This document shows, one piece after another, positions 8,378 to 59,575 of a stretch of 64,000 bases of DNA; position 1 is the stretch's first letter, and every line of letters starts with the position of its first letter. Position numbers and translations under genes: made by a program. Source of the DNA: a virus; the IMG/VR virus record IMGVR_UViG_3300032087_005129. One strand, given 5' to 3'. The notes below the pieces were generated by a model. The model worked only from the letters and a program-made list of their open reading frames with translations, did not search any database and was not told the origin of the DNA.

Positions 8378-8449
8378 GCCAACGTAGCACAACGGTAGTG
8401 CAGTTCACTTGTAATGAACAGGTTGCTGGTTCGAATCCAGTCGTTGGCT
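8378..8449 (+). tRNA. tRNA-Thr(TGT)
   Basis: Cloverleaf GCCAACG/CGTTGGC, anticodon arm GTTCA-CTTGTAA-TGAAC, GGTTCGAATCC; no CCA. Confidence 0.95.
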
Positions 8450-8463
8450 TTCGGAGATAAAAC

Positions 8464-8631
8464 ATGGCAGGAAAAGGCGATTCATATCGAAAAGTGAATC
8501 AAAAGAAATGGGAAGAAAATTGGGAAAGGGCTTTCGGTGCTAAAAACAGGAAAAGAAACACACCAACAAATGCAAAAGGCGTATCTTCGAGGAAAAAGAA
8601 AACCTCTACCCGTAACAACAACAAACACTAA
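8464..8631 (+). CDS. small basic hypothetical protein
   Basis: MAGKGDSYRKVNQKKWEENWERAFG...; GGAG SD upstream. Confidence 0.55.
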   Translation: MAGKGDSYRKVNQKKWEENWERAFGAKNRKRNTPTNAKGVSSRKKKTSTRNNNKH

Positions 8632-8664
8632 AGAGTGGATTGAAAAAATCAAAAAGGATAAACA

Positions 8665-8994
8665 ATGAGTAATGTGAAAAATGTGAGTCTTGCTACAGGT
8701 GAAAGTATTATTGCTGATTGCAGTGGTCTTGGCGAAGACAAAAAATACTTTGAAATCAAAAACGCAGCAATTGTATTGCGTAAAGATATTGCATCGCCAA
8801 TGATGCTTCTGCCTTGGATTGATCATGCAGAAAAAGATCAAACTATTTCTATTAGTTCAGATAAAGTTATTTGGTATTGTGATGTTAGTGATGAGTTAGA
8901 AGATCAGTATGATAAAGCCGTGACGAAGTGGTATTCGAACCTTGTTGTTCCTGATGCTGCAACGACACAAAGACTAAAGATTACTGAAGATTGA
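8665..8994 (+). CDS. hypothetical protein (possible Sm-like fold)
   Basis: V.LATGE.IIA...L.PW pattern typical of T4-like small proteins. Confidence 0.55.
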   Translation: MSNVKNVSLATGESIIADCSGLGEDKKYFEIKNAAIVLRKDIASPMMLLPWIDHAEKDQTISISSDKVIWYCDVSDELEDQYDKAVTKWYSNLVVPDAATTQRLKITED

Positions 8995-9000
8995 TTTTAG

Positions 9001-9073
9001 GCTCTCGTAGCATAACGGATAATGCAACTGACTTCTAATCAGTAGATTGCAGGTTCGAATCCTGCCGAGAGCG
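9001..9073 (+). tRNA. tRNA-Arg(TCT)
   Basis: GCTCTCG/CGAGAGC acceptor, ACTGA-CTTCTAA-TCAGT anticodon arm; no CCA. Confidence 0.95.
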
Positions 9074-9098
9074 TTTTGCAAATAAAAGGAGATTTATT

Positions 9099-9272
9099 AT
9101 GAAAAAAATTGCAAAGGTTTGTCACGTTTTAGGTTTTGCTTCGATTGCACTTTCTGCCTATTGCTACAATGCATATGGTATCGCTGATGCGACCTATGTT
9201 GGTCTTTGGGTTCCTTCGTTCTTTCTTGTAGGCAATTTCTTTGCTTGCAAATCACATTGTAAGAAGAAGTAA
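9099..9272 (+). CDS. small two-TM membrane protein
   Basis: MKKIAKVCHVLGFASIALS...YVGLWVPSFFLVG; AGGAG SD. Confidence 0.6.
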   Translation: MKKIAKVCHVLGFASIALSAYCYNAYGIADATYVGLWVPSFFLVGNFFACKSHCKKK

Positions 9273-9297
9273 ATAGGGGTGATTTAATCACCCAATC

Positions 9298-9371
9298 GGG
9301 AGTGTAGCCCAATTGGCAGAGGCGCAAGATTTAGGTTCTTGTTGTTGTAGGTTCGAGTCCTATCACTCTCA
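9298..9371 (+). tRNA. tRNA-Leu(TAG), short variable loop
   Basis: GGGAGTG/CACTCTC acceptor, CAAGA-TTTAGGT-TCTTG anticodon arm. Confidence 0.9.
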
Positions 9372-9373
9372 TT

Positions 9374-10000
9374 ATGAGTATTTTGTTTTTGACATTAATT
9401 TTAAATATTGAAAATAAATCGGTTTATCAAACACCGCTTGAAAGACTTGTTCATCTTGTTGAGTCTGATGGTAGACTTACAAACAACGAGCCTATACTAG
9501 GTGACTGGTGTGAAAAAAGACAAAGGTTTCTTTCGAGAGGGCCTTTGCAAATAACCAGAGATTGTCATACCGATGCTAATGTTAGTTTTCCGTATGAAGA
9601 GGTAGATAGCCTAGAAAACTCACTGATTGTTTTTCGTAAATATATGAAACGATATGCCAACAAAGATAGATTTGTGCGATTAGGCATTAATAGAGAACCT
9701 ACCGCAGAAGACATGTTAAGAATTTGGGTTGGTGGACCAAAAGGCTTTTTGAAAAAGTCAACAGATTCTTATTGGGAAAATAGTTTAAGGAGATTTTTGA
9801 TGAAACTCAATGTAGGGCAAAAAGTATTTTGTAAGAGTTCAAATAGAGAGGCAACTATTGTCTCAATCAACGAAGAAAAGATTACAATCAAGTATGAGAC
9901 ATCTGGTGAGATCACAGAAGTAACACAAGGACAGATTTCACAGTTGCTTCTTGGAAACAATGATCAATCAGATCAAACTTTTTTACAAGAGGGTCAATAA
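9374..10000 (+). CDS. invertebrate-type (destabilase-like) lysozyme domain followed by a small SH3/Tudor-like domain
   Basis: VESDG...GD...SRGPLQI...YM.RY...RIWVGGPKG..K..T..YW; in-frame internal AGGAG+ATG at 9800. Confidence 0.6.
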   Translation: MSILFLTLILNIENKSVYQTPLERLVHLVESDGRLTNNEPILGDWCEKRQRFLSRGPLQITRDCHTDANVSFPYEEVDSLENSLIVFRKYMKRYANKDRFVRLGINREPTAEDMLRIWVGGPKGFLKKSTDSYWENSLRRFLMKLNVGQKVFCKSSNREATIVSINEEKITIKYETSGEITEVTQGQISQLLLGNNDQSDQTFLQEGQ

Positions 10001-10968
10001 TGGGAAAGTGTCCATTTTCAATATTTCAAAGCAAAAAAGGTCGTGTTGAGGAAGTAAAACCCTCCATCGTACAAGATCATACAGAATCACCTTTCTTAAG
10101 AGTGAGAAGATTACATCCAACCCAAGGGATTAAAATTGTTCCAGCAAACCGTAAACTAATAGGTCCTGATGGTCAAAATGAAACAGAGCATAATTACTCT
10201 AGATCTGGAGCGATCAAAAGATGCGGCCCTTATGTTCACGCAAACAGTTTAGGTTGGTGGATCTTTCCTGCTGTCGATTTAGATGCTACTTATCACCCCA
10301 ACGGTGAATGGACAATACACGAATATAACAAGTTTGATGAAATTCAACAACATGAGTACCTGTCTAGTCTACCATCCTATGAGTATAAAACAGAGAGTGG
10401 AGAAACTCGTGAATTACCATCAAAATATTTAACTAGAAGTTATGTTAATGCAGGTCTCGCAGATGAGAATATTCTTCAAATCTGGACAGGAGTTATTCTC
10501 AGAACACCGCCTGGTTGGGGACTTTTAATTCGAAGTCCAATCAATGTGGAAGAGGACTATGATAGATCTTGGTACATTCAAGAGGGAGTCATAGAATCTG
10601 ATTGGATGGATTATGATATTTGGACAAATATTGTTTTTAAGAAGCCAAATCAGAAAGTTGAAATACGTCAAAAGATGTGGCCTCCCCTCGCACAAATTGT
10701 TCCAATTCGTCGAGAAGCCTATGATACAAAATGGGATATTGATGATCAGTTAATTACTGCTGATGATCCAGAATTTGCTTCTTGGCAAGATTATACCTTT
10801 AAAAAATGGACACAGATAAACGAAAAAGAAGGTAAAACATATTACAAAGAGCGAGCAGTTCAAAAACCACGTCCTGATGATTCAAAGATTGAGTCTCTTC
10901 GTGAAAAATATGCTACCAGTAGAAACGAACATCAGGTAAGAAAAGATGTGAAAAAGGATTCAGAATAA
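10000..10968 (+). CDS. DUF6065-like protein
   Basis: RCGPYVHANSLGWWIF...TG.ILRTPPGW.LL...P.N...EG.IE.DW. Confidence 0.65.
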   Translation: MGKCPFSIFQSKKGRVEEVKPSIVQDHTESPFLRVRRLHPTQGIKIVPANRKLIGPDGQNETEHNYSRSGAIKRCGPYVHANSLGWWIFPAVDLDATYHPNGEWTIHEYNKFDEIQQHEYLSSLPSYEYKTESGETRELPSKYLTRSYVNAGLADENILQIWTGVILRTPPGWGLLIRSPINVEEDYDRSWYIQEGVIESDWMDYDIWTNIVFKKPNQKVEIRQKMWPPLAQIVPIRREAYDTKWDIDDQLITADDPEFASWQDYTFKKWTQINEKEGKTYYKERAVQKPRPDDSKIESLREKYATSRNEHQVRKDVKKDSE

Positions 10969-10973
10969 AATCA

Positions 10974-11046
10974 GGCCCTGTAGCCCAACGGTAGAGGCAG
11001 TGGACTTAAAATCCATACAGTTCGGGTTCGAATCCCGATGGGGCTA
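10974..11046 (+). tRNA. tRNA-Leu(TAA), short variable loop
   Basis: GTGGA-CTTAAAA-TCCAT anticodon arm, GGTTCGAATCC; acceptor stem has three G-U pairs. Confidence 0.85.
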
Positions 11047-16798: not shown

Positions 16799-18400
16799 AT
16801 GACAAATCTCGTTCTTGCTTTTACTCTGGCAGCAAACATTGATGTTACTGAAGACATCGCAACATCAACAACTTGGACTGCGGACAACACCTACAATCTA
16901 ACAAAACAAATTTATGTGTTGCCGGGGGCAACTTTGACAATTGAAGCAGGAACAATCATTGCTTCAGAAGCAACTGCAAATGGTGCAGGTGGTTTATGTG
17001 TGACAAATGGCGCACAAATTTTTGTAAACGGAGAAAGACACGCACCAGTCGTGATGACTTCAACCCTTGATGATGGGACTTGGAGAGCATCTGCGAATGA
17101 GTGGGGTAATCTTACGCTATGCGGTGATGCATATATCGGATTCGATGGTGTAACAAACTCTGGAGGTTTCCCTTCAAACACCCTGACTCCGAGTGCATCT
17201 AACCAAGCAAACATGGAAGGTCTTGTTGAAACAGCAGGCAACTCATCTCTAAATAATTATGGTGGTGGTGATGACGATTATGATGCAGGCAATTTATCTT
17301 ATCTGTCTATTCGCTATGCGGGTAGAGTTGTCGGACTATCTAATGAACTCAATGGTCTGTCTCTTGGTGCTATTGGTCGGGATACGAAAATCCATCACAT
17401 CGAAGTAATGAACAACGTCGATGACGGCATCGAGATTTGGGGTGGTACGGTTGACCTCAAGTATGTCTCTATCTGGAATGTTGGTGATGACTCGTTTGAT
17501 GTTGATCAAGGTTGGAGAGGTCGGGCGCAGTTTGGTTTGATCGTGCAAGGCTATTCACGAAACGCTTCACAAGGTTCTGGACTCGGTGACAATATCTTTG
17601 AGTTTGATGGTGCAGAAAACTCTGATGCTCAACCAAGAACTCGTGCAGCAATCTATAACTTTACCACGATTGCAAACACTGAGTCTGGCGATGGTACAAC
17701 AACTTGGAGAGACAACGCATCGGTTCAATTCCGAAACAATATCTTCATCGGTAAAGGCGACAAACTTGTTCGTGCTGATGGGGATGATGGAGATGGATCT
17801 TCTGGGTATGGTCACAACGGTTCTCTGACGCTCGCTGAACGCTTTGAGACAGATGCAGTGGGATCAAACGGGATTGCTTACATTGATCCTGTAAACGCTG
17901 GTGCTTCTTCTATGATGGACAATCTGTATCAAGCACAAACCGATGGTAAACTTGCAGAATTGTCAAACAACATTATCTCTGGTTTTGGTGATATTTCCGA
18001 TGACCCATACTACGACATCGTGCCTGCGTCAATGCGTGTCACAAATGTTGAAACCGCAGAACTTCCGATTCGCACACTGGTTCGTGCGCCGAGTGTTGTT
18101 GTCGGTGGTAAGTCTGTGAATGCTGTTGTGTCAATTGACCCGACACCGATTGACTCTGACATTATCACGACACCCGCTCCTGCACCTGCAAATGGTTTCT
18201 ATTCACCCGTCACCTATCGTGGTGGTTTTGCTCCCGATGAAAACTGGTTGCTCGGATGGTCTGCTGCTGATGAGTTTGGTTTCTTGACAGGAACAGACGA
18301 TAGCGATTGTGGAACTTGTAAGGGTGATGCAAATGCCGATGGTGTGGTTGGTTTCCTTGACCTGACTACTATTCTTGGAAACTGGGGATGCGAAGGCTAA
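16799..18400 (+). CDS. secreted beta-helix surface protein (TonB-system-associated bacterial family) with C-terminal dockerin-like anchor
   Basis: Short signal-like N-terminus; TTWT..Y.L..GATLTIEAGT...P.V.TS...WG.L...YGG...G.LSY..IRY.G...ELNGL.LG...DDGIE.WGG..DDSFD.D.G..G..QF; ends CKGDANADGVVGFLDLTTILGNWG. Confidence 0.75.
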   Translation: MTNLVLAFTLAANIDVTEDIATSTTWTADNTYNLTKQIYVLPGATLTIEAGTIIASEATANGAGGLCVTNGAQIFVNGERHAPVVMTSTLDDGTWRASANEWGNLTLCGDAYIGFDGVTNSGGFPSNTLTPSASNQANMEGLVETAGNSSLNNYGGGDDDYDAGNLSYLSIRYAGRVVGLSNELNGLSLGAIGRDTKIHHIEVMNNVDDGIEIWGGTVDLKYVSIWNVGDDSFDVDQGWRGRAQFGLIVQGYSRNASQGSGLGDNIFEFDGAENSDAQPRTRAAIYNFTTIANTESGDGTTTWRDNASVQFRNNIFIGKGDKLVRADGDDGDGSSGYGHNGSLTLAERFETDAVGSNGIAYIDPVNAGASSMMDNLYQAQTDGKLAELSNNIISGFGDISDDPYYDIVPASMRVTNVETAELPIRTLVRAPSVVVGGKSVNAVVSIDPTPIDSDIITTPAPAPANGFYSPVTYRGGFAPDENWLLGWSAADEFGFLTGTDDSDCGTCKGDANADGVVGFLDLTTILGNWGCEG

Positions 18401-19029
18401 TCAGAACATTTGTTGCTTTCATTCTTGGGTTAGTATGCACAGCATTCTTCTTTATGCTGTTGCCATTACTTCAAGCGATCAACTCTCCATTCCAAGGTGA
18501 TTCTATGGTACGAACGATGGAAATAGTCAGCGTCCCACCACCTCCACCACCACCGATGGATGAACCGGATAAGCCTGAACCCGAACCAGAGCCAGAACCA
18601 CCTCAGATAGAATTCACACCTGAACCGCTCGACATCAGCCAGTTAGAGGTTATGCTCAATCCCGGCTTTGGTGATTTTATGGGTGGTGACTTCGGTATTC
18701 AGTTGAAGAGTGCAATAGCAAATAGCGAAGAGATGAATGAAATTTTTTCTTCGTCAGAACTCGATCAGAAGGCTCGCCGTTTGAGTGTGGTACAACCTCG
18801 TGTCACCTCTACGTTACTTCGTCAAGCCCCTGCGACCGTAGTAGTAATCTTTATTGTTGATGAAAATGGCAGGGTTCAAGATCCCAAAATTCAGCGAACG
18901 ACTAATCCATCCTTTGATCGATCTGCTCTTTCTGCTATCAAGCAATGGAAGTTTGAGCCTGCCAAAGTTCAGGGTCGTGCCGTTTCAAGTCGTCTGCGAC
19001 AATCATTTTCTTTTGAAAATAACGTATAA
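18388..19029 (+). CDS. tonB: TonB energy transducer
   Basis: N-terminal TM, poly-Pro/EPEP spacer, C-terminal V.FIVDENGRV...AL.AIKQWKFEPA...G..V domain. Confidence 0.88.
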   Translation: MRRLIRTFVAFILGLVCTAFFFMLLPLLQAINSPFQGDSMVRTMEIVSVPPPPPPPMDEPDKPEPEPEPEPPQIEFTPEPLDISQLEVMLNPGFGDFMGGDFGIQLKSAIANSEEMNEIFSSSELDQKARRLSVVQPRVTSTLLRQAPATVVVIFIVDENGRVQDPKIQRTTNPSFDRSALSAIKQWKFEPAKVQGRAVSSRLRQSFSFENNV

Positions 19030-37023: not shown

Positions 37024-37524
37024 ATGATTGAGTTTGATTACACACTGGATTTTGACAACATCGATTACCGTGAAAATCCAGAAATGTATATTATTGGTCG
37101 AGGAGAACAAGGAGTATTGCTCTGTGAACCATACAAATCTGAAATCTGCAAACACTGGAGATTTCGAACGCCTGAAATCGCGTTCGCATCGGCAAATAGA
37201 ATTTACACTATGTTTAATGACTATCTTATTCGTGATGAGTTTGTTGGGGCTGATATGGCACGCAAGTTCCTTATGATGGGATGGACAAGAGCAAGAAGGT
37301 ATGCCAATCATCGTAACGGAAAGAAATACGATGATAAAGGTAGAATCAAACCACAAGAGTCTGATCATTGGACTTGTGATAAAGCAGAGTCGGCACGAAT
37401 TTTTAAGCGTGTATACGATGCAGCAAGAACAAACAAAACTTACAGAACAATGGTTCGTGAGTGGAGAAAAAAAGAGGAGAAACGCGCCGTGGGAGGAACT
37501 GGCACTTCTCAGTGCGACTTATAA
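37024..37524 (+). CDS. DUF4385-family protein
   Basis: IGRGEQGVLL.EPYKSEI..HWRF.TP..A...DMARKFL.MG.TRARRYANH. Confidence 0.88.
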   Translation: MIEFDYTLDFDNIDYRENPEMYIIGRGEQGVLLCEPYKSEICKHWRFRTPEIAFASANRIYTMFNDYLIRDEFVGADMARKFLMMGWTRARRYANHRNGKKYDDKGRIKPQESDHWTCDKAESARIFKRVYDAARTNKTYRTMVREWRKKEEKRAVGGTGTSQCDL

Positions 37525-37558
37525 TCGTGCAAACTTGGTTCGATTCCAAGACGGCGTA
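37484..37558 (+). tRNA. tRNA-Ile(TAT), non-canonical, overlapping the DUF4385 3' end
   Basis: GCGCCGT/ACGGCGT acceptor, loop CTTATAA, CTTGG-TTCGATT-CCAAG T-arm; G at position 8. Confidence 0.75.
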
Positions 37559-53773: not shown

Positions 53774-54931
53774 ATGGCATTGACTGATGTATATTTTGCT
53801 GCTGGTGACGTTATTAGATCAGCACAACAAGATGGAACTACACCTGGCACTGCTTTCAATGCACTCAACGCTTCGAGCGACGACTGGGGAAATAATATCA
53901 AAAATGCGGATAGAGCAAATCGTCGCTTTATTTTTCTTGAAGGCACTTACAATGTGCAATCAGAATTAGTCTTCACAACAAGTGATCCGACTATAGCAGA
54001 TCCGAACATATGGGTTGGTGCAAAGAGTGACGGAACACTTCTTGAACCACAGTTTGACGAAACAGGTATGCACCTCGTCACAGACAACTACCCAAAAATC
54101 ATTAACTCTGCAAACACCACTCTCATCGACACTGCTGCGGTTGAAGTTTTTAAGTGTATCCACTTTGAAAATACGAATGCCAGCAGAAATGGTTTTCTCA
54201 TTAATAATGATTTTAATGAATCAAAGAATATCTCATTCATTGGTTGTTATGGTAAGATAACACCCAACGGAACGAGTTCGACTATTTTTCAAGTTTGGGG
54301 TGGGACTGCATTGATGTGTGAAGCAGTGATGAATGGCACCAACTACAAAAACATCATCAATGCAGGAGGAACAAATCAATCTGCTGTCATAAATTGTCGT
54401 GTGTATGGTGGAGGTAAAAGTGGAACCAATGAGGGTCGAGGAATCGAGTTAGGAACACTCAATGATTCTGTTGTTGAAACTTTGATTTACAATGTTCACG
54501 GTCCTGCAATTTATGATGGAACAAGTAATGATCGAAATTCTAACATGATAAATTGCACCGTCATTTCTATTGGTGGTGATGGACATGATACCTCTACTGG
54601 AACAGATGATCAGAGAGGAACTTCTATTCATGGAAATATATTCTTTGATATAGATGGTGATGGTGTGAAAGCAAATGCAAATGATGATGATATTGTTATC
54701 GCATCCTTTAATGCTTTTGGTAGCATTGGTGGATCTAACTTTGTAAATTTAGATTCGTATGAATCTATGGCAACTATCGGAAATCAAACAGTCTCGACCA
54801 GTGACTTTGTTGACTATGCTAACCAAGATTTTAGAATAGCAAAAACGTCACCCTTGTATAAGGGTATCGGTGGGACTCGAAACTTTGGTGCGATTCAAAA
54901 TCAAGACTTTGAATTTGTAGGAGCAGGATAA
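53774..54931 (+). CDS. right-handed beta-helix (pectin-lyase-like) tail-associated protein
   Basis: Repetitive Asn/Gly/Cys beta-helix pattern; D..N.DFR...S.L...GA.Q C-terminus. Confidence 0.6.
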   Translation: MALTDVYFAAGDVIRSAQQDGTTPGTAFNALNASSDDWGNNIKNADRANRRFIFLEGTYNVQSELVFTTSDPTIADPNIWVGAKSDGTLLEPQFDETGMHLVTDNYPKIINSANTTLIDTAAVEVFKCIHFENTNASRNGFLINNDFNESKNISFIGCYGKITPNGTSSTIFQVWGGTALMCEAVMNGTNYKNIINAGGTNQSAVINCRVYGGGKSGTNEGRGIELGTLNDSVVETLIYNVHGPAIYDGTSNDRNSNMINCTVISIGGDGHDTSTGTDDQRGTSIHGNIFFDIDGDGVKANANDDDIVIASFNAFGSIGGSNFVNLDSYESMATIGNQTVSTSDFVDYANQDFRIAKTSPLYKGIGGTRNFGAIQNQDFEFVGAG

Positions 54932-56091
54932 TGTCAGTCACAGATTTATTTTTTTCCCCAACAGGTGCAGGTAACAATTCAGGAGATTCTGTAGCAAATG
55001 CGATGCCGGCAACAGATGGTGCAGGTGACTGGTCTACAGAAATCAAAAGTCAAGATCGTCAAAACAAAAGATGGATCTTCTTAGAGGGAACATACAATGT
55101 AAGTTCCGAACTTGTTTCAACGGGATCAGAGGCAACAGATACGCAACCAAACTTTTGGGTGGGTGCAAAATCAGATGGAACAATACTTGAACCATCCTTT
55201 GATGAAACTGGTATGCATCTTGACACCACACACTACCCGATGATTACCAACAGTGCTGCTACAGCGATTTATGACAGCGACTCTCAGGGTCACTTTTACT
55301 GTATTGGTTTTGTGAATACAAATTCTTCGTTTGGTCGTGACGGTGTTGTAAATAATGTTTTCAGTGAGATTCTTTATGTGTCTTATCTGGGATGCTTCTT
55401 CAAGGCAAAAACAACAATCAACACAAACACATCTGTTCATAAGATGGTGGGTGGCAATCTTATCATGTGTGAAGTTGTAGCAGAACCAGACAGTGATAAT
55501 TTAGGGGCAGTTTTGGATGCAAGTGGGACGCACAATACTCTGATAGCAGATAGTCGAATATATGGACCAGGCAAGACTCAATCTATCAGTGCTTCGACTG
55601 CTCATCACATTATATCTACATCCAATGTCGTCGGAACACACATACTCTATACATTGATGGCAGATGGAGCAGCGGACGGATTTCATTTTGATGCGACATC
55701 TGCATCGAGAAATAGTGTAATCTATAAAAACACTTTTGTAAATCTTGCTGGTGATGCTATGGACTTTCAAGAGTTAGACACTTCCACACAAGGGCATCGT
55801 GTTGACGGTAACATAGCATTCAATGTAGATGGTAATTTTGTGGAGTCTGATGCAGAGGGTAAACTGTTATCGTCAAAAAATTCATACTCTGGTTCGGCAG
55901 CATACTTCAACGGCATCACAGAGTTTAGTGTGTTAAACACCGAGGTTTCGGCAGTGACCGCTGACTTTTTTGATTATGATAATGCAGACTACAGGGTAAA
56001 AAGAACATCAAACGTGTTCAACAGGTTTAAGGGTTCTGGAAACATAGGTGCATTTCAAAACGAAGATTTCGAGTTTGTTTCAGTTTCATAA
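54931..56091 (+). CDS. beta-helix protein, paralog of 53774..54931
   Basis: Shares FLEGTYNV.SELV, WVGAKSDGT.LEP.FDETGMHL and GA.QN.DFEFV with its neighbour. Confidence 0.6.
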   Translation: MSVTDLFFSPTGAGNNSGDSVANAMPATDGAGDWSTEIKSQDRQNKRWIFLEGTYNVSSELVSTGSEATDTQPNFWVGAKSDGTILEPSFDETGMHLDTTHYPMITNSAATAIYDSDSQGHFYCIGFVNTNSSFGRDGVVNNVFSEILYVSYLGCFFKAKTTINTNTSVHKMVGGNLIMCEVVAEPDSDNLGAVLDASGTHNTLIADSRIYGPGKTQSISASTAHHIISTSNVVGTHILYTLMADGAADGFHFDATSASRNSVIYKNTFVNLAGDAMDFQELDTSTQGHRVDGNIAFNVDGNFVESDAEGKLLSSKNSYSGSAAYFNGITEFSVLNTEVSAVTADFFDYDNADYRVKRTSNVFNRFKGSGNIGAFQNEDFEFVSVS

Positions 56092-56101
56092 AGGAAAATA
56101 A

Positions 56102-56392
56102 ATGTCATTCGATAGAGAAAAGATAAACAAAGAGATTGAAGATCTAATTTCTTCAGGTGAAGATGTTTTTGATTTTGACTTTAGTTTTGCTGATGATATA
56201 GAAGTGAAAGAACACACTGGCGCATCAAGTGACGAGAAAAGCAAATTGCAGGCTCTTGAGAAACTTGTTTTGCCACTTCTGTATAACCTGAAGAAGGATA
56301 CATCCAAAGATTACATTCTTTGGGATGGTGCAAAGCGTGCCGCACAATGCGAGGAGCAGATAACTAGAATCTTAGAAATTACCAGAGGGTAA
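56102..56392 (+). CDS. conserved T4-like hypothetical protein
   Basis: FDFDFSF...LPLL.NL.K...KDYI.W...R motif. Confidence 0.65.
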   Translation: MSFDREKINKEIEDLISSGEDVFDFDFSFADDIEVKEHTGASSDEKSKLQALEKLVLPLLYNLKKDTSKDYILWDGAKRAAQCEEQITRILEITRG

Positions 56393-56406
56393 TCCTAAAG
56401 TGTTAG

Positions 56407-56414
56407 TATAAATA
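56407..56414 (+). promoter_or_regulatory. T4-type late promoter for the dockerin-protein genes
   Basis: TATAAATA then AAGGAG SD. Confidence 0.75.
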
Positions 56415-56435
56415 TACTTAAGGAGATTCTTTATT

Positions 56436-57464
56436 ATGAAAAAAATTGCTTTATTGCTTTGCAGTGTTTTTACATACAATACAACTGCAAACACTGACTG
56501 CCTAGATGTTTCTGGCGATATCATCGCTGTTGACCGTGGCAGAATCACACCATTCGGTAGAACGTTTGATCTTTACATCAAAACGAACGGGCGAAGACCG
56601 CTTGGTTTGGGTGCGTCTTGGCCACGCATTCACAATGACCTTGCTGTTCCTTTTCGGTGGGAAACAGAAGGTGAGTTTTTCTTCAACCGAAATTTAAACA
56701 CCCAACCTACTCTCGAAAATTCACCAGAGGCAATGGAATATTGGCTCAACAAGTATGAGTGTCCAAACATTAATGGGGTGTATGATTGTGAACCAGGAGA
56801 ATATTTCTTCTGCATGCAAGACAATCCATACAACAACTGGCTCTACAGCAATCACGAAGTTTCACAGCGTTGGGATGTCATCGGTCCCTACGGCATTCCA
56901 CGATGGAACGAACCTTACTATGACTCATACTGGGACAAGGGAACCTCATGGTTGGTAATGAATCGTCCCGGTTACATCTTCCCCGAAAGCACCAGCGGCG
57001 ACCAAGCCACACCAAGAATCGATCAAAGTAAAGGATTGTTGTTGCAAAACGATTACTACTTTGAACAAGCACCAACGCCCTATGACGGTTATGAAAGTTA
57101 CGAATGTGGTGGGTACAACTATAACGAATTTGGTAAAGTCATTGAGTTTGGTTCTGGTGATTGGGAAGATGACGAAATGGAAAACCACTACCGCTTTGCT
57201 CGCATGACAGGTATTGATCGTATCGCAATCAGCGGTGTGATTATTTACAGTGCAGTTGATTGCCAAGATCTGAACTTTGCTGAGCCTGTTTTCTTTGAGT
57301 ATGAACCAGACAACTCTTGTCCTGCTGATTTGGACGAAGATGGTAGAGTTGGTTTTTCAGACTTGCTTACTGTACTGAGTAATAACATTTACGCACCAGG
57401 AGCAAGAAAGACACAGTTTGATGCTTTGATTGAAGTTATTTCGCAATGGGGAGATTGTCAATGA
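56436..57464 (+). CDS. secreted acidic/aromatic protein with C-terminal dockerin-like anchor
   Basis: Signal MKKIALLLCSVF...A; ends PDNSCPADLDEDGRVGFSDLLTVLS...FDALIEVISQWGDC. Confidence 0.75.
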   Translation: MKKIALLLCSVFTYNTTANTDCLDVSGDIIAVDRGRITPFGRTFDLYIKTNGRRPLGLGASWPRIHNDLAVPFRWETEGEFFFNRNLNTQPTLENSPEAMEYWLNKYECPNINGVYDCEPGEYFFCMQDNPYNNWLYSNHEVSQRWDVIGPYGIPRWNEPYYDSYWDKGTSWLVMNRPGYIFPESTSGDQATPRIDQSKGLLLQNDYYFEQAPTPYDGYESYECGGYNYNEFGKVIEFGSGDWEDDEMENHYRFARMTGIDRIAISGVIIYSAVDCQDLNFAEPVFFEYEPDNSCPADLDEDGRVGFSDLLTVLSNNIYAPGARKTQFDALIEVISQWGDCQ

Positions 57465-58465
57465 TTTTAGAATTACTTTGTGCTACAGCACTTTCACAAA
57501 CAGAAATTGTTTATAAAGATTTGGGTAGACTCACACCGTTCGGAAGAACCATTGATGTCTACATTAAGAACACTCGCGGTGATGTTCCTGTTAAATTAGG
57601 ATCTGAAGGTCCAGGCACTTCTGTTGCTTGGTGGATTGACGGAAAGGTTTGGAAGAACCACAACGATTCGCAAATGGACTTCCTACTGAATGACCCTGCA
57701 AATGTTGAATTTTTGGAACAACAAATTCCAAACTTCTCTGACTGGGAAGCAGGTGAATGGTGGGAGTGTATGCAAAACAATCCAAACCAAACTGTCTACT
57801 GGCAGAACACCGATGTTCCAAGATTCTATTATCAAACTACTAGTGTTGATGGTTTGTTCTGGGGTGATTTACAAACATCACTGATTGAACAAGATTACTG
57901 GTGGGCAGACTCATGGATCGTGATGAACGAACCGTGGCAACAAAGTGGAAACAACGCAAGCACATTCACAGTGCAACCTGAGATTCCACAGTTTGTCGGT
58001 AATCTGCTTGAAGATGACCGAGTGATTTTCTGGGCTGGTGCTGCACCCCCGAACGAATACGGCACCGTTCTTTGCCCTCCACCCGACGAAAACGGAAACT
58101 TTGGATATCCGTGGTCTTGGTCTGGTCAACTGATGCGATTCAAGAATTACGGTCCCGATGATGTGAACCCGTGGGAGTCCACTGAGTTTGACAATCACTG
58201 GCGAATTGCTCGCATCACTGGTCCCGACTATATCGGCATTGGTGGAGTGGTTCTTTACAATCCAGAGAACGAAGAAGCGTACACTGAAGCCACAGGAGCA
58301 GGGCAAATCTTCCCTGACAACTCTTGTCCATCTGACTTGAACGAAGATGGAATTGTTGGCTTTAGTGACTTGATTCAAGTTTTGTCTGATGTCTCAGCAA
58401 GACGATATCGTGTCGATGGCTTCGAAGCGATTGTTAAGGTATTGTCAGAATGGGGTTCTTGCTAA
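57461..58465 (+). CDS. secreted protein with C-terminal dockerin-like anchor (paralog of 56436)
   Basis: Shares GR.TPFGRT.D.YIK, .CMQ.NP, SW.VMN.P, NH.R.AR.TG; ends PDNSCPSDLNEDGIVGFSDLIQVLS...VLSEWGSC. Confidence 0.75.
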   Translation: MILELLCATALSQTEIVYKDLGRLTPFGRTIDVYIKNTRGDVPVKLGSEGPGTSVAWWIDGKVWKNHNDSQMDFLLNDPANVEFLEQQIPNFSDWEAGEWWECMQNNPNQTVYWQNTDVPRFYYQTTSVDGLFWGDLQTSLIEQDYWWADSWIVMNEPWQQSGNNASTFTVQPEIPQFVGNLLEDDRVIFWAGAAPPNEYGTVLCPPPDENGNFGYPWSWSGQLMRFKNYGPDDVNPWESTEFDNHWRIARITGPDYIGIGGVVLYNPENEEAYTEATGAGQIFPDNSCPSDLNEDGIVGFSDLIQVLSDVSARRYRVDGFEAIVKVLSEWGSC

Positions 58466-58491
58466 ACTTCTAAAAAACTAAATACTTACTC

Positions 58492-58532
58492 AATCGGTGG
58501 CCGTTTCACAGTTTCGGTCACCGATTTTTTTT
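58492..58532 (+). terminator. hairpin with T tract (terminator/attenuator)
   Basis: ATCGGTGGCCG/CGGTCACCGAT stem followed by a T run; CTAAATA just upstream. Confidence 0.6.
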
Positions 58533-58552
58533 GGGATTAAAAAGGAGAGATT

Positions 58553-59176
58553 ATGATGAAATACTTGGCGCTGACACTAGCGACTGCTGCTCTTGCTGAT
58601 ATCGGTGGAGACCCAGTGGCATCACTTGAGTCAGAAATTTATGGCGAGAACTGGGCTGCTACAGTTAGATCATCTGTCTACACAGAAAACGAGCAACAAG
58701 ATCAACTAGGACTACCTGACGGTTCAATACTAATCACATACACAATCTACAATAGCGAAGAATCACTGTCTGAAATTGAAGACGTTGATATTTTTGTTGG
58801 CACTAAAACCGAAGAAAATAGTCATCTTTCTGTTCCTGGATACTTTCAACAACCAACAGATGATGAAAATAGACAAGCATATAACGCACCCGACTATGTT
58901 GATTTTGCGTACGAAACAGGGTTGTACAACTGGGACTGGGGCGCCGAGGGAAACTTTTTCTCCTCAGGATTGAAACCTGGGGAATACGCAACTCTATTCG
59001 TGATATCATGGACGGATGGATGGATCGAGAATCCTGGCATCGTTCAGGGTGGAGGTGACGCAGGGATCTTTTTTGCTTTTGTTCCTGAGATTGACGGACA
59101 AGAAATACCTGCACCTGGCACACTCACCCTTCTTGGTCTTTCGATCATTGGCAACAGAACCAGAAAGCGTAGATAA
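58553..59176 (+). CDS. PEP-CTERM (IPAPG-type) sorting-signal protein
   Basis: Signal MMKYLALTLATAALA; ends IPAPGTLTLLGLSIIGNRTRKRR. Confidence 0.85.
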   Translation: MMKYLALTLATAALADIGGDPVASLESEIYGENWAATVRSSVYTENEQQDQLGLPDGSILITYTIYNSEESLSEIEDVDIFVGTKTEENSHLSVPGYFQQPTDDENRQAYNAPDYVDFAYETGLYNWDWGAEGNFFSSGLKPGEYATLFVISWTDGWIENPGIVQGGGDAGIFFAFVPEIDGQEIPAPGTLTLLGLSIIGNRTRKRR

Positions 59177-59180
59177 GTTG

Positions 59181-59188
59181 TATAAATA
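59181..59188 (+). promoter_or_regulatory. T4-type late promoter
   Basis: TATAAATA upstream of gp25. Confidence 0.75.
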
Positions 59189-59194
59189 GATGGC

Positions 59195-59575
59195 ATGGCA
59201 AGATATGTCGATCTAGATTTAGACTTTGAAAAAAACCCCTTTACGCTTGACGTTAACACCAAAGTAGATGTTGATGCTGTAAAACGATCTATTCGGAATC
59301 TGATTGTTCCTGGTAGATTTGAGAGGCTTTTTCAACCTGACCTGAGTGCTGGTGTCTCAGGTCTTCTTTTTGAGCATTTAACACCAGGTTCAAAACACAC
59401 GATTGAAAAACTCATCAGTCAAACAATCGAAAACTCTGAACCAAGGGCAAGCCTAAAAAATGTCATTGTTGTTGATGATTTTGACAATAATGGTTTGAAA
59501 GTGACCATCGACTTCACTGTTTTAAACGTATCTCAGCCAGCGACACTCGAATTCACACTTAGAAGGTTACGATAA
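59195..59575 (+). CDS. gp25: baseplate wedge subunit (gp25-like)
   Basis: DLDL.F..NP.T.D....D..AVKRSIRNL....ER.FQP....LFE...EPR...L.RLR. Confidence 0.93.
   Translation: MARYVDLDLDFEKNPFTLDVNTKVDVDAVKRSIRNLIVPGRFERLFQPDLSAGVSGLLFEHLTPGSKHTIEKLISQTIENSEPRASLKNVIVVDDFDNNGLKVTIDFTVLNVSQPATLEFTLRRLR

Follow-up and report, generated by a model that had tools for sequence, protein, structure and literature searches.

Organization of the locus

The DNA analyzed here, hereafter the window, is a stretch of 64,000 nucleotides (nt) from the IMG/VR record IMGVR_UViG_3300032087_005129, and family searches of its proteins identified it as part of the genome of an uncultured marine T4-like myovirus. These proteins include a family B DNA polymerase, a primase, a ribonucleotide reductase (RNR), a gp5-like hub protein, gp25, gp6, a gp7-like wedge protein and collagen-like fibres. 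The subject of this work is a cassette at positions 56,407-59,176, comprising three open reading frames (ORFs), A, B and C, whose products begin with signal-peptide-like sequences and end either in a dockerin-like module (A and B) or in a PEP-CTERM-like sorting tail (C). Fibre-like genes lie 5' of the cassette, and gp25 (PF04965, E 6e-8) followed by gp6 lies on its 3' side. A sequence-only reading of this DNA had described a late promoter, two paralogous signal-peptide-like proteins and a third gene with a PAPG tail, all of which are present at the locus (Table 1).

The cassette opens with a T4-type late promoter motif, TATAAATA, followed by an AAGGAG ribosome-binding site (RBS) at 56420-56425 and by the ATG of ORF A at 56436. 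All 11 copies of this motif in the window lie on the + strand, with about 5 expected on either strand, and such a strand bias fits real late promoters. By motif alone, ORF A has the layout of a T4-type late unit, in which TATAAATA precedes the start by about 20-30 nt. The first residues of ORF B, MGRLS, are kept in relatives that are 77-86% identical. Downstream of ORF B, a terminator-like hairpin folds with -19.2 kcal/mol (z -5.2), and none of 200 shuffled sequences folded as well. Since this strong hairpin and the U8 stretch behind it separate ORF B from ORF C, the cassette probably consists of two transcription units, as predicted from the sequence.

Table 1 Features of the cassette, of its surroundings and of related loci. 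Positions refer to the window unless a contig is named; lengths are in amino acids (aa), base pairs (bp) or nt.
Feature	Position	Strand	Description
T4-type late promoter motif TATAAATA	56407..56414	+	22 nt upstream of the ORF A start
ORF A, 342 aa	56436..57464	+	Signal-peptide-like N-terminus (MKK and hydrophobic core), beta-sandwich body, dockerin-like tail
ORF A tail	57291..57461	+	Cys, calcium-binding loop DLDEDGRVGFSD, helix 1, linker, helix 2, ending WGDC
ORF B, 339 aa	57446..58465	+	Paralogue of ORF A (36% identity); overlaps ORF A by 19 nt
ORF B tail	58292..58462	+	CPSDLNEDGIVGFSDL ... VLSEWGSC
Terminator-like hairpin	58492..58534	+	12-bp stem, 11-nt loop, then T8; between ORF B and ORF C
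ORF C, 207 aa	58553..59176	+	Predicted Sec-type signal peptide (cleavage between MMKYLALTLATAALA and D), immunoglobulin-like beta-sandwich body, PEP-CTERM-like tail
PEP-CTERM-like sorting tail of ORF C	59081..59173	+	IPAPG, 12-residue hydrophobic stretch, RTRKRR; ORF C ends IPAPGTLTLLGLSIIGNRTRKRR
96-aa gene	56102..56392	+	Conserved upstream edge of the variable slot; 97-98% identical in relatives with 0, 1 or 2 A/B-type genes
Second TATAAATA	59181..59188	+	Serves gp25 (59195-59575); downstream edge of the insert slot
P0007, beta-helix protein with host-type tag	16799..18400	+	74% identity to a Phycisphaeraceae protein; ends C.GDANADGVVGFLDLTTILGNWGC
P0008, TonB homologue	18388..19029	+	82% identical to TonB of genome G608
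Third tagged family, in relatives	L019:3905-4756, L028:9104-9952, L030:6109-, L016/L021/L023/L025 (278 aa)		Hydrophobic N-terminus
150-230-aa protein, in 52-67 kb phages	L062:10914-11369, L076:11059-11514, L058:1558-2256, also L066, L078, L045, L046		3' of an A/B-type gene

The C-terminal module of ORFs A and B

The tails of the A/B family follow the conserved pattern PDNSCP[AS]DL[DN]EDGxVGFSDL..VLS..(about 15 aa)..[VI][LI]SxWGxC. They comprise one intact calcium-binding loop with its helix and then a second helix with a degenerate loop, and not the two tandem repeats of a dockerin; in the AlphaFold model of ORF A, the two helices span residues 307-315 and 327-336. The sequence-only reading had taken the tail for a single dockerin-like module; the second helix with its degenerate loop makes this more than a bare single repeat. 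Like type I dockerins (PF00404), the tail has a calcium-binding loop of the form DxDxDGxVxxxD followed by a helix and stands at the C-terminus of predicted secreted proteins. Unlike them, it has one intact loop, flanking Cys residues, a WGxC ending and no match to Dockerin_1. A profile of the A/B tails compared with the PDB sequences gave a clostridial dockerin as its best match (E 7.6e-4), with EF-hand proteins next. The sole Pfam signal on the tails came from EF-hand_1 (E 0.15), and the tails alone had no match in NCBIfam. Judging from these similarities, dockerin-like seems a fair name for the module. The class of tails with the pattern Cys...WGxC has no curated model and is defined here by a profile, A5, built from the phage sequences.

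In the A/B family, mean pairwise identity is higher for the tail (0.77) than for the body (0.59), the pattern expected when an invariable component of the host constrains the tail and the body can diverge freely. The signal peptides of both the A/B and the C families were judged by hydropathy and a cleavage-site heuristic. A hydrophobic core is present in all 61 A/B-family leaders, 55 of which also have a candidate cleavage site. A lipoprotein reading was rejected, as LLLC and ELLC are not lipoboxes.

The sorting tail of ORF C

The sorting of PEP-CTERM proteins by EpsH-type exosortases was defined by Haft et al. 2006 (PMC1569441). Like the substrates of the known exosortase systems (EpsH, XrtA; PF07589, TIGR02595, PF09721), the ORF C product has a small body of the diverse kind found in this class and ends in a P-x-P motif, a short transmembrane helix and a basic cluster, arranged as IPAPG-TLTLLGLSIIG-NRTRKRR; its N-terminus is a candidate signal peptide. 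Among 18 C-family sequences, P186-A187-P188 is invariant and the hydrophobic-plus-basic layout is kept, with PF07589 matching 12 of the 18 at E<0.1 (best 0.0016). All 17 non-redundant leaders of the family combine a basic n-region of K/R residues with a small-x-small site (for example between ALA and D) according to the heuristic.

ORF C differs from PEP-CTERM systems in that its motif is PAP, not PEP, and in that it is encoded by a lytic-type phage in which no exosortase of its own was found. Its scores with the generic hidden Markov models (HMMs) fall just under the PEP-CTERM cut-offs, and processing by an exosortase is predicted. The earlier remark that no exosortase is visible in the window was borne out by a scan for transmembrane segments, which found no ORF in the window with at least three of them and hence no exosortase-like polytopic ORF. 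The complete genomes of four related phages and one partial (27%) contig likewise yielded no exosortase.

A candidate host among the Phycisphaeraceae

The sole cultured relative detected at the DNA level was the Pelagibacter phage HTVC008M, with 69% identity over 177 bases of gp6 in a blastn search with a 4-kb region. The gp25, gp6 and gp7-like baseplate genes are common to the window phage, HTVC008M and other marine T4-like myoviruses. In this comparison, made at the DNA level only, the match to HTVC008M was confined to part of gp6, and no DNA-level counterpart of the cassette was seen. Unlike HTVC008M with its SAR11 setting, the window phage carries host-derived genes that point to the Phycisphaeraceae.

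These genes are the beta-helix protein P0007 and the TonB homologue P0008. The former bears the third dockerin-like tail of the window, in a short form, and lies outside the finding on A, B and C. It has hundreds of bacterial homologues, and its closest cellular cluster (74%) consists of proteins from marine Phycisphaeraceae, Phycisphaerae and Phycisphaerales metagenome-assembled genomes (MAGs) that end in the same tail. In a sample of 400 Planctomycetota genomes the best identity was 59%, a close relative of the host being absent from that sample. By searching the order of a tail-rich planctomycete genome (G001), we found G608, a 2.0-Mb marine Phycisphaeraceae genome in which the counterparts of P0007 and P0008 lie 8 kb apart, the P0007 match being full-length. 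The corresponding patch of the window (16799-19029) has 45-48% GC and a GC content at third codon positions (GC3) of 0.35-0.37, which is already phage-like.

G608 encodes one exosortase above the Pfam cut-off (PF09721), and matches above it were also obtained in each of seven further planctomycete genomes. Provided that the host assignment is correct, an exosortase would thereby co-occur with ORF C, and the putative host would have, as in PEP-CTERM systems, both an exosortase and multiple proteins of this type. Fourteen PEP-CTERM-like sites were found in G608; tails of the same variant score 14.9-24 bits, with 1 of the 14 above the cut-off. We read eight of these ORFs, which are 161-281 aa long. 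Seven have signal-peptide-like starts, and all eight end in [IV]PAPG(A)LALLGLAGLGRRRR, so that the phage PAPG variant appears to be matched almost letter for letter.

The dockerin-like tails are likewise common in G608, where the phage tail profile has 114 matches (about 57 per Mb, E down to 2.5e-8), several of them in ORFs with signal-peptide-like starts. Because the profile was built from phage sequences, the matches in G608 constitute an independent result. Elsewhere, the profile had 0, 6 and 14 matches in three genomes chosen for having at least one tail-like match, 0 in another planctomycete genome, and 96 in a MAG that carries the label Isosphaeraceae. The tails of A, B and P0007 align with those of G608 over the Phycisphaerales-type pattern Cys...DxNxDGxVGFxDL...WG(x)C. 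One G608 protein shares the phage layout exactly: its first loop and helix are intact, its second helix lacks a loop, and it ends in WGAC. Other tails there carry two complete repeats. Dockerin_1 matches at E<=0.01 number 18-111 in genomes of this order, most of those listed being above the Pfam cut-off, which the double-repeat versions of the tail pass. The exosortase, the PEP-CTERM-like sites and the tail-profile matches of G608 agree with the earlier statement that both types of tag are abundant in the Phycisphaerae. From these sequence similarities, the host of the phage is probably a planktonic member of the Phycisphaerae.

The window also contains five tRNA genes (8378-11046 and 37484-37558), for Thr-TGT, Arg-TCT, Leu-TAG, Leu-TAA and Ile-TAT. 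All five tRNAs read A/T-ending codons, which fits a phage of 39% GC in a host of about 55% GC.

Structure and distribution of the protein bodies

Searches of Pfam, NCBIfam and PHROGs with the whole ORFs A and B gave no family match. The AlphaFold model of ORF A has a beta-sandwich core at a predicted local distance difference test (pLDDT) score of 64.5, for which Foldseek returned no match in the PDB. A sequence search of the PDB with a profile of the A/B body gave nothing below E 0.1, and the ESM Atlas neighbours of ORF A score under 0.9. The best VIA Z score in a wide search was 4.1, and the listed top 50 included 12 cohesin modules with Z of 2.8-4.0. We treat the presence of cohesin modules among the neighbours of this model as a lead and not as a result. 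The ORF C model (pLDDT 71.7) shows an immunoglobulin-like beta-sandwich, and its Foldseek matches in the PDB were weak, limited to adhesin or adaptin immunoglobulin-like domains (E ~1e-3, TM-score 0.3-0.4). Its best VIA Z score was 8.2, to generic immunoglobulin-like folds and adhesins.

In an exhaustive HMMER search of 1.84 billion proteins, the A/B body alone matched 25 representative clusters, none longer than 359 aa, in a library that carries no names and from which a viral origin of these clusters is not assignable. Five of the clusters were read, and all five end in, or break off inside, a dockerin-like tail. In five Phycisphaerales genomes the full A/B and C family profiles match tails only, and an HMM comparison of the C family with the eight PEP-CTERM proteins of G608 also aligns the tails only. 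The bodies of A, B and C thus do not appear host-like, and it is the tails alone that seem to resemble host proteins; the sequences in which the bodies occur look viral.

Mobility of the cassette among related phages

The junctions between the 96-aa gene, the cassette and gp25/gp6 recur in seven independent contigs from different samples (L001/L094, L002, L003/L033, L004, L014, L015 and L031). The GC3 of A, B and C is 0.36-0.41, compared with a phage mean of 0.33 +/- 0.06 and with 0.63 for host PEP-CTERM genes. Because this value is near the phage mean, we regard the three as resident phage genes, not a host insert, and both observations answer the concern raised earlier that the region might be a chimeric host insert.

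The slot bounded by the 96-aa gene and gp25 is hypervariable (56102-59195 compared with L001, L002, L004, L014 and L015) in phages with 68-98% identity in the flanking genes. There, L014 and L015 have no A/B-type gene, L001, L002 and L004 have one of a different subfamily, and the window phage and L003 have two. ORF C follows in every version of the slot, in variants that are 59-97% identical. Upstream of the slot, at 53774-56091, the window has two tandem paralogous genes of 385 aa with a weak DUF5123 (beta-helix) signal, which also vary among relatives (39-95% identity, one or two copies) and probably encode exchangeable receptor-binding or depolymerase proteins.

Relatives of A/B were found at at least 80 IMG/VR loci and relatives of C at 32, often adjacent to one another. 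The cassette stands next to gp25 only in close kin of the window phage. In most other contigs of the roughly 100 related ones, its genes lie among those for Hsp20, a RimK-like ATP-grasp protein, DNA polymerase and RNR. The A/B type also extends to four phages with complete genomes of 52-67 kb, a size too small for T4-like phages; direct terminal repeats are present in two of these genomes. The placement inside a baseplate gene cluster that the sequence-only reading had emphasized is therefore correct for the window, where the cassette lies between fibre-like genes and gp25, and does not extend to the other loci, where it is found mostly among non-structural genes. A, B and C have no structural match in PHROGs or Pfam and their position is not conserved; the cassette does not appear to be a part of the baseplate.

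The complete 52-67 kb phages that carry the A/B family (G791, G792, G793 and G795, the records of L038, L095, L057 and L062) share with the window phage RNR (65% identity) and w28701, w14674 and w3936, a sign that phages infecting one group of hosts may draw on a shared set of genes. Absent from the window is a third family, of 278-283 aa (282 aa in L019 and L028), which lies between B-type and C-type genes in relatives (Table 1). Its dockerin-like tail lacks the two Cys residues (..NYNGVVDFDDLLIVL..SNWGNTNS). A protein of 150-230 aa encoded 3' of the A/B-type gene in the phages of 52-67 kb has an N-terminal CxxC, a coiled-coil-like stretch and a tail of the form [VL]P[EA]xG followed by hydrophobic and basic residues, with no N-terminal signal peptide. 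These PEP-CTERM-like-tailed proteins are unrelated to ORF C, and from their sequence they could be a second kind of exosortase-type substrate or holin/spanin-like membrane proteins.

A predicted role at the surface of the infected cell

Taken at the level of sequence, A, B and C are rather likely to be phage genes for envelope proteins that bear host address tags and are placed on the surface of the infected cell. All three products would be exported by the host Sec pathway through their N-terminal signal peptides. The C-terminal helix and basic cluster of the ORF C product would keep it in the inner membrane until the single host exosortase processes it at PAPG and passes it to the cell surface or the exopolysaccharide layer, by analogy with the system of Haft et al. 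2006 (PMC1569441). The dockerin-like module of A and B would deliver and tether these proteins where the host puts its large class of tagged secreted proteins. In the window phage, A and B at least would be expressed late. Once in place, the bodies may remodel the surface of the infected cell, by excluding superinfecting phages or by masking receptors on infected cells and debris, to which progeny would otherwise be lost; exclusion or masking as the specific role is a guess. We favor surface remodelling because the bodies have no host homologue, gene number and subfamily vary, and expression in the window phage is predicted to be late, all of which points to conflict between host and virus or between viruses. 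That the cassette is mobile and that its bodies are known only together with these tails also make this the most likely role. The earlier proposal of export by host sorting machinery is supported by the sequence evidence, and no sequence test refuted it.

Several observations weigh against this interpretation. The HMM searches that the sequence-only reading had suggested as a check of the tails did not reach the thresholds of the curated models: with PF07589 (cut-off 20.7) the whole ORF C scores 15.3 bits and its tail alone 20.6, TIGR02595 gives the tail 14.7 against a cut-off of 16, and Dockerin_1 (PF00404) has no match to ORFs A and B or their tails even at E<=10. An obvious basic n-region is present in only 27 of the 61 A/B-family leaders. 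As for a cohesin partner of the dockerin-like module, the Pfam cohesin model (PF00963) has 0 matches in five Phycisphaerales genomes, although a divergent partner is possible, and the module may act as an anchor or as a signal for secretion. Fold searches with the bodies gave generic beta-sandwiches only, from which no function follows, and the host assignment rests on two shared genes and not on a virus-host link. As to expression, the terminator leaves ORF C with an RBS and without a recognized TATAAATA, so that the late-promoter cassette of the sequence-only reading holds for ORFs A and B, which the motif precedes, and is split between B and C; ORF C may be transcribed by read-through or from an unrecognized promoter. 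Of 59 related A/B-type genes, only 3 are preceded by an exact TATAAATA, so that late timing does not hold for the family at large, and the baseplate location and the late promoter are both peculiar to the sub-clade of the window phage.

The main alternative to surface remodelling is nutrient capture beside the phage TonB module. Here the targeting would be the same, and A, B and C would serve as auxiliary substrate-capture proteins in a dockerin-tethered apparatus that feeds TonB-powered import. Andrei et al. 2019 (PMC6461901) proposed that Phycisphaerae of freshwater degrade peptides with a cohesin/dockerin planctosome on their surface. Two genes of the window that derive from a host encode a TonB and a beta-helix protein with a dockerin-like tail, and in most relatives the cassette has auxiliary or early-type neighbours (Hsp20, RimK-like ATP-grasp, RNR). 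However, a borrowed metabolic function would be expected to come with host homologues, as is the case for the TonB and beta-helix proteins and not for the bodies of A, B and C, in which fold and profile searches also recognized neither an enzyme nor a binding fold. Phages that are nearly identical differ in the number and type of these genes, as is rather to be expected of genes for conflict, and a late promoter motif precedes A and B. Altogether, we judge nutrient capture to be unlikely, if still the best placed of the competing explanations.

It is less probable again that the tails merely retain the proteins in the inner membrane or periplasm, with a role in envelope disruption or the timing of lysis and not at the cell surface. 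The predicted late expression in the window phage would suit such a role, as would the transmembrane segment and basic cluster at the C-terminus of ORF C, which are found in many phage membrane proteins, and the possibly holin- or spanin-like protein with CxxC, a coiled coil and a transmembrane-plus-basic tail that often follows the A/B-type gene in the 52-67 kb phages. A plain membrane anchor, on the other hand, needs neither an invariant PAP nor near-identity to the exosortase-type tails of the host. The A/B tail is predicted to be a folded calcium-binding module common to many G608 ORFs, several of them signal-peptide-like, and no lysis-type domain was detected with Pfam or PHROGs.

The cohesin modules among the structural neighbours of ORF A raise a further idea, which we consider doubtful and slightly less probable than retention in the envelope, namely that the beta-sandwich body of A/B is a divergent cohesin-like module. 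The phage would then make an 'adaptor scaffoldin' that docks by its own tail and captures the dockerin-like tails of host proteins. If this were true, the protein array on the host surface would be re-wired or blinded during infection, and the A/B protein would be the first handle on the receptor for the dockerin-like tails of Phycisphaerales.

A, B and C could also be ordinary baseplate- or fibre-associated virion proteins, as their place downstream of a late promoter motif, with fibre-like genes on one side and gp25/gp6 on the other, would allow; their leaders would then target them to the capsid or virion or act in assembly. This is very unlikely, given that the genes lie outside structural modules in most relatives, occur in non-T4 phages of 52-67 kb and vary from 0 to 2 A/B-type copies in near-identical phages, and that ORF C has a membrane-spanning tail and the proteins match no structural family in PHROGs. 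The leaders are A/L-rich and signal-peptide-like and not of the MKxFxxYLxE type, and a reading of them as capsid-targeting sequences was rejected on account of this character and of the membrane tail of ORF C. Finally, the slightly raised GC content (43-45% versus 39% for the window) might point to host DNA that was inserted very recently or was joined to the phage contig in assembly, but this can practically be dismissed in view of the shared junctions in contigs from different samples, the phage-like GC3 and the bodies without a host homologue.

Relation to known phage envelope proteins and implications

Phage envelope proteins that ride on host sorting are known from lambda (Bor and Lom), T5 (Llp), phi80 and N15 (Cor) and T4 (Imm and Sp), and surface placement through host sorting is known for lipoproteins and porin-like proteins of enterobacterial phages. 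Like the predicted products of A, B and C, these are phage proteins exported by the host that alter the surface of the infected cell; several of them block receptors or superinfection, and their genes are accessory and variable in position. Bor, Lom, Llp, Cor and their like take the lipoprotein (Lol) or beta-barrel (Bam) routes of Proteobacteria, whereas an exosortase and a dockerin-type module in Planctomycetota would be used here, and unlike them the three tagged proteins travel as a cassette. No published description of phage-encoded proteins with PEP-CTERM or dockerin tags came up in full-text literature searches, consistent with the first impression that such a module had not been reported in a lytic T4-like phage, and viruses of Planctomycetota are barely documented in the literature.

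The finding would add two sorting systems and one host phylum to those known for host-sorted envelope proteins of phages, a class represented by Bor, Lom, Llp and Cor. The tags may serve as a sequence-level fingerprint of the host: together with the two genes that are 74% and 82% identical to those of Phycisphaeraceae, they would assign a widespread marine viral group to planktonic Phycisphaerae. About 100 loci from many samples make up the group, in which T4-like phages and complete phages of 52-67 kb both occur. Viruses of Phycisphaerae are almost unknown. The phage tails also mark the residues that would matter in both of these poorly understood signals, PAPG in the one and Cys...DxNxDGxVGF...WGxC in the other. 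As small, portable substrates, the phage proteins could be used to study exosortase function and to find the partner of the planctomycete dockerin-like module.

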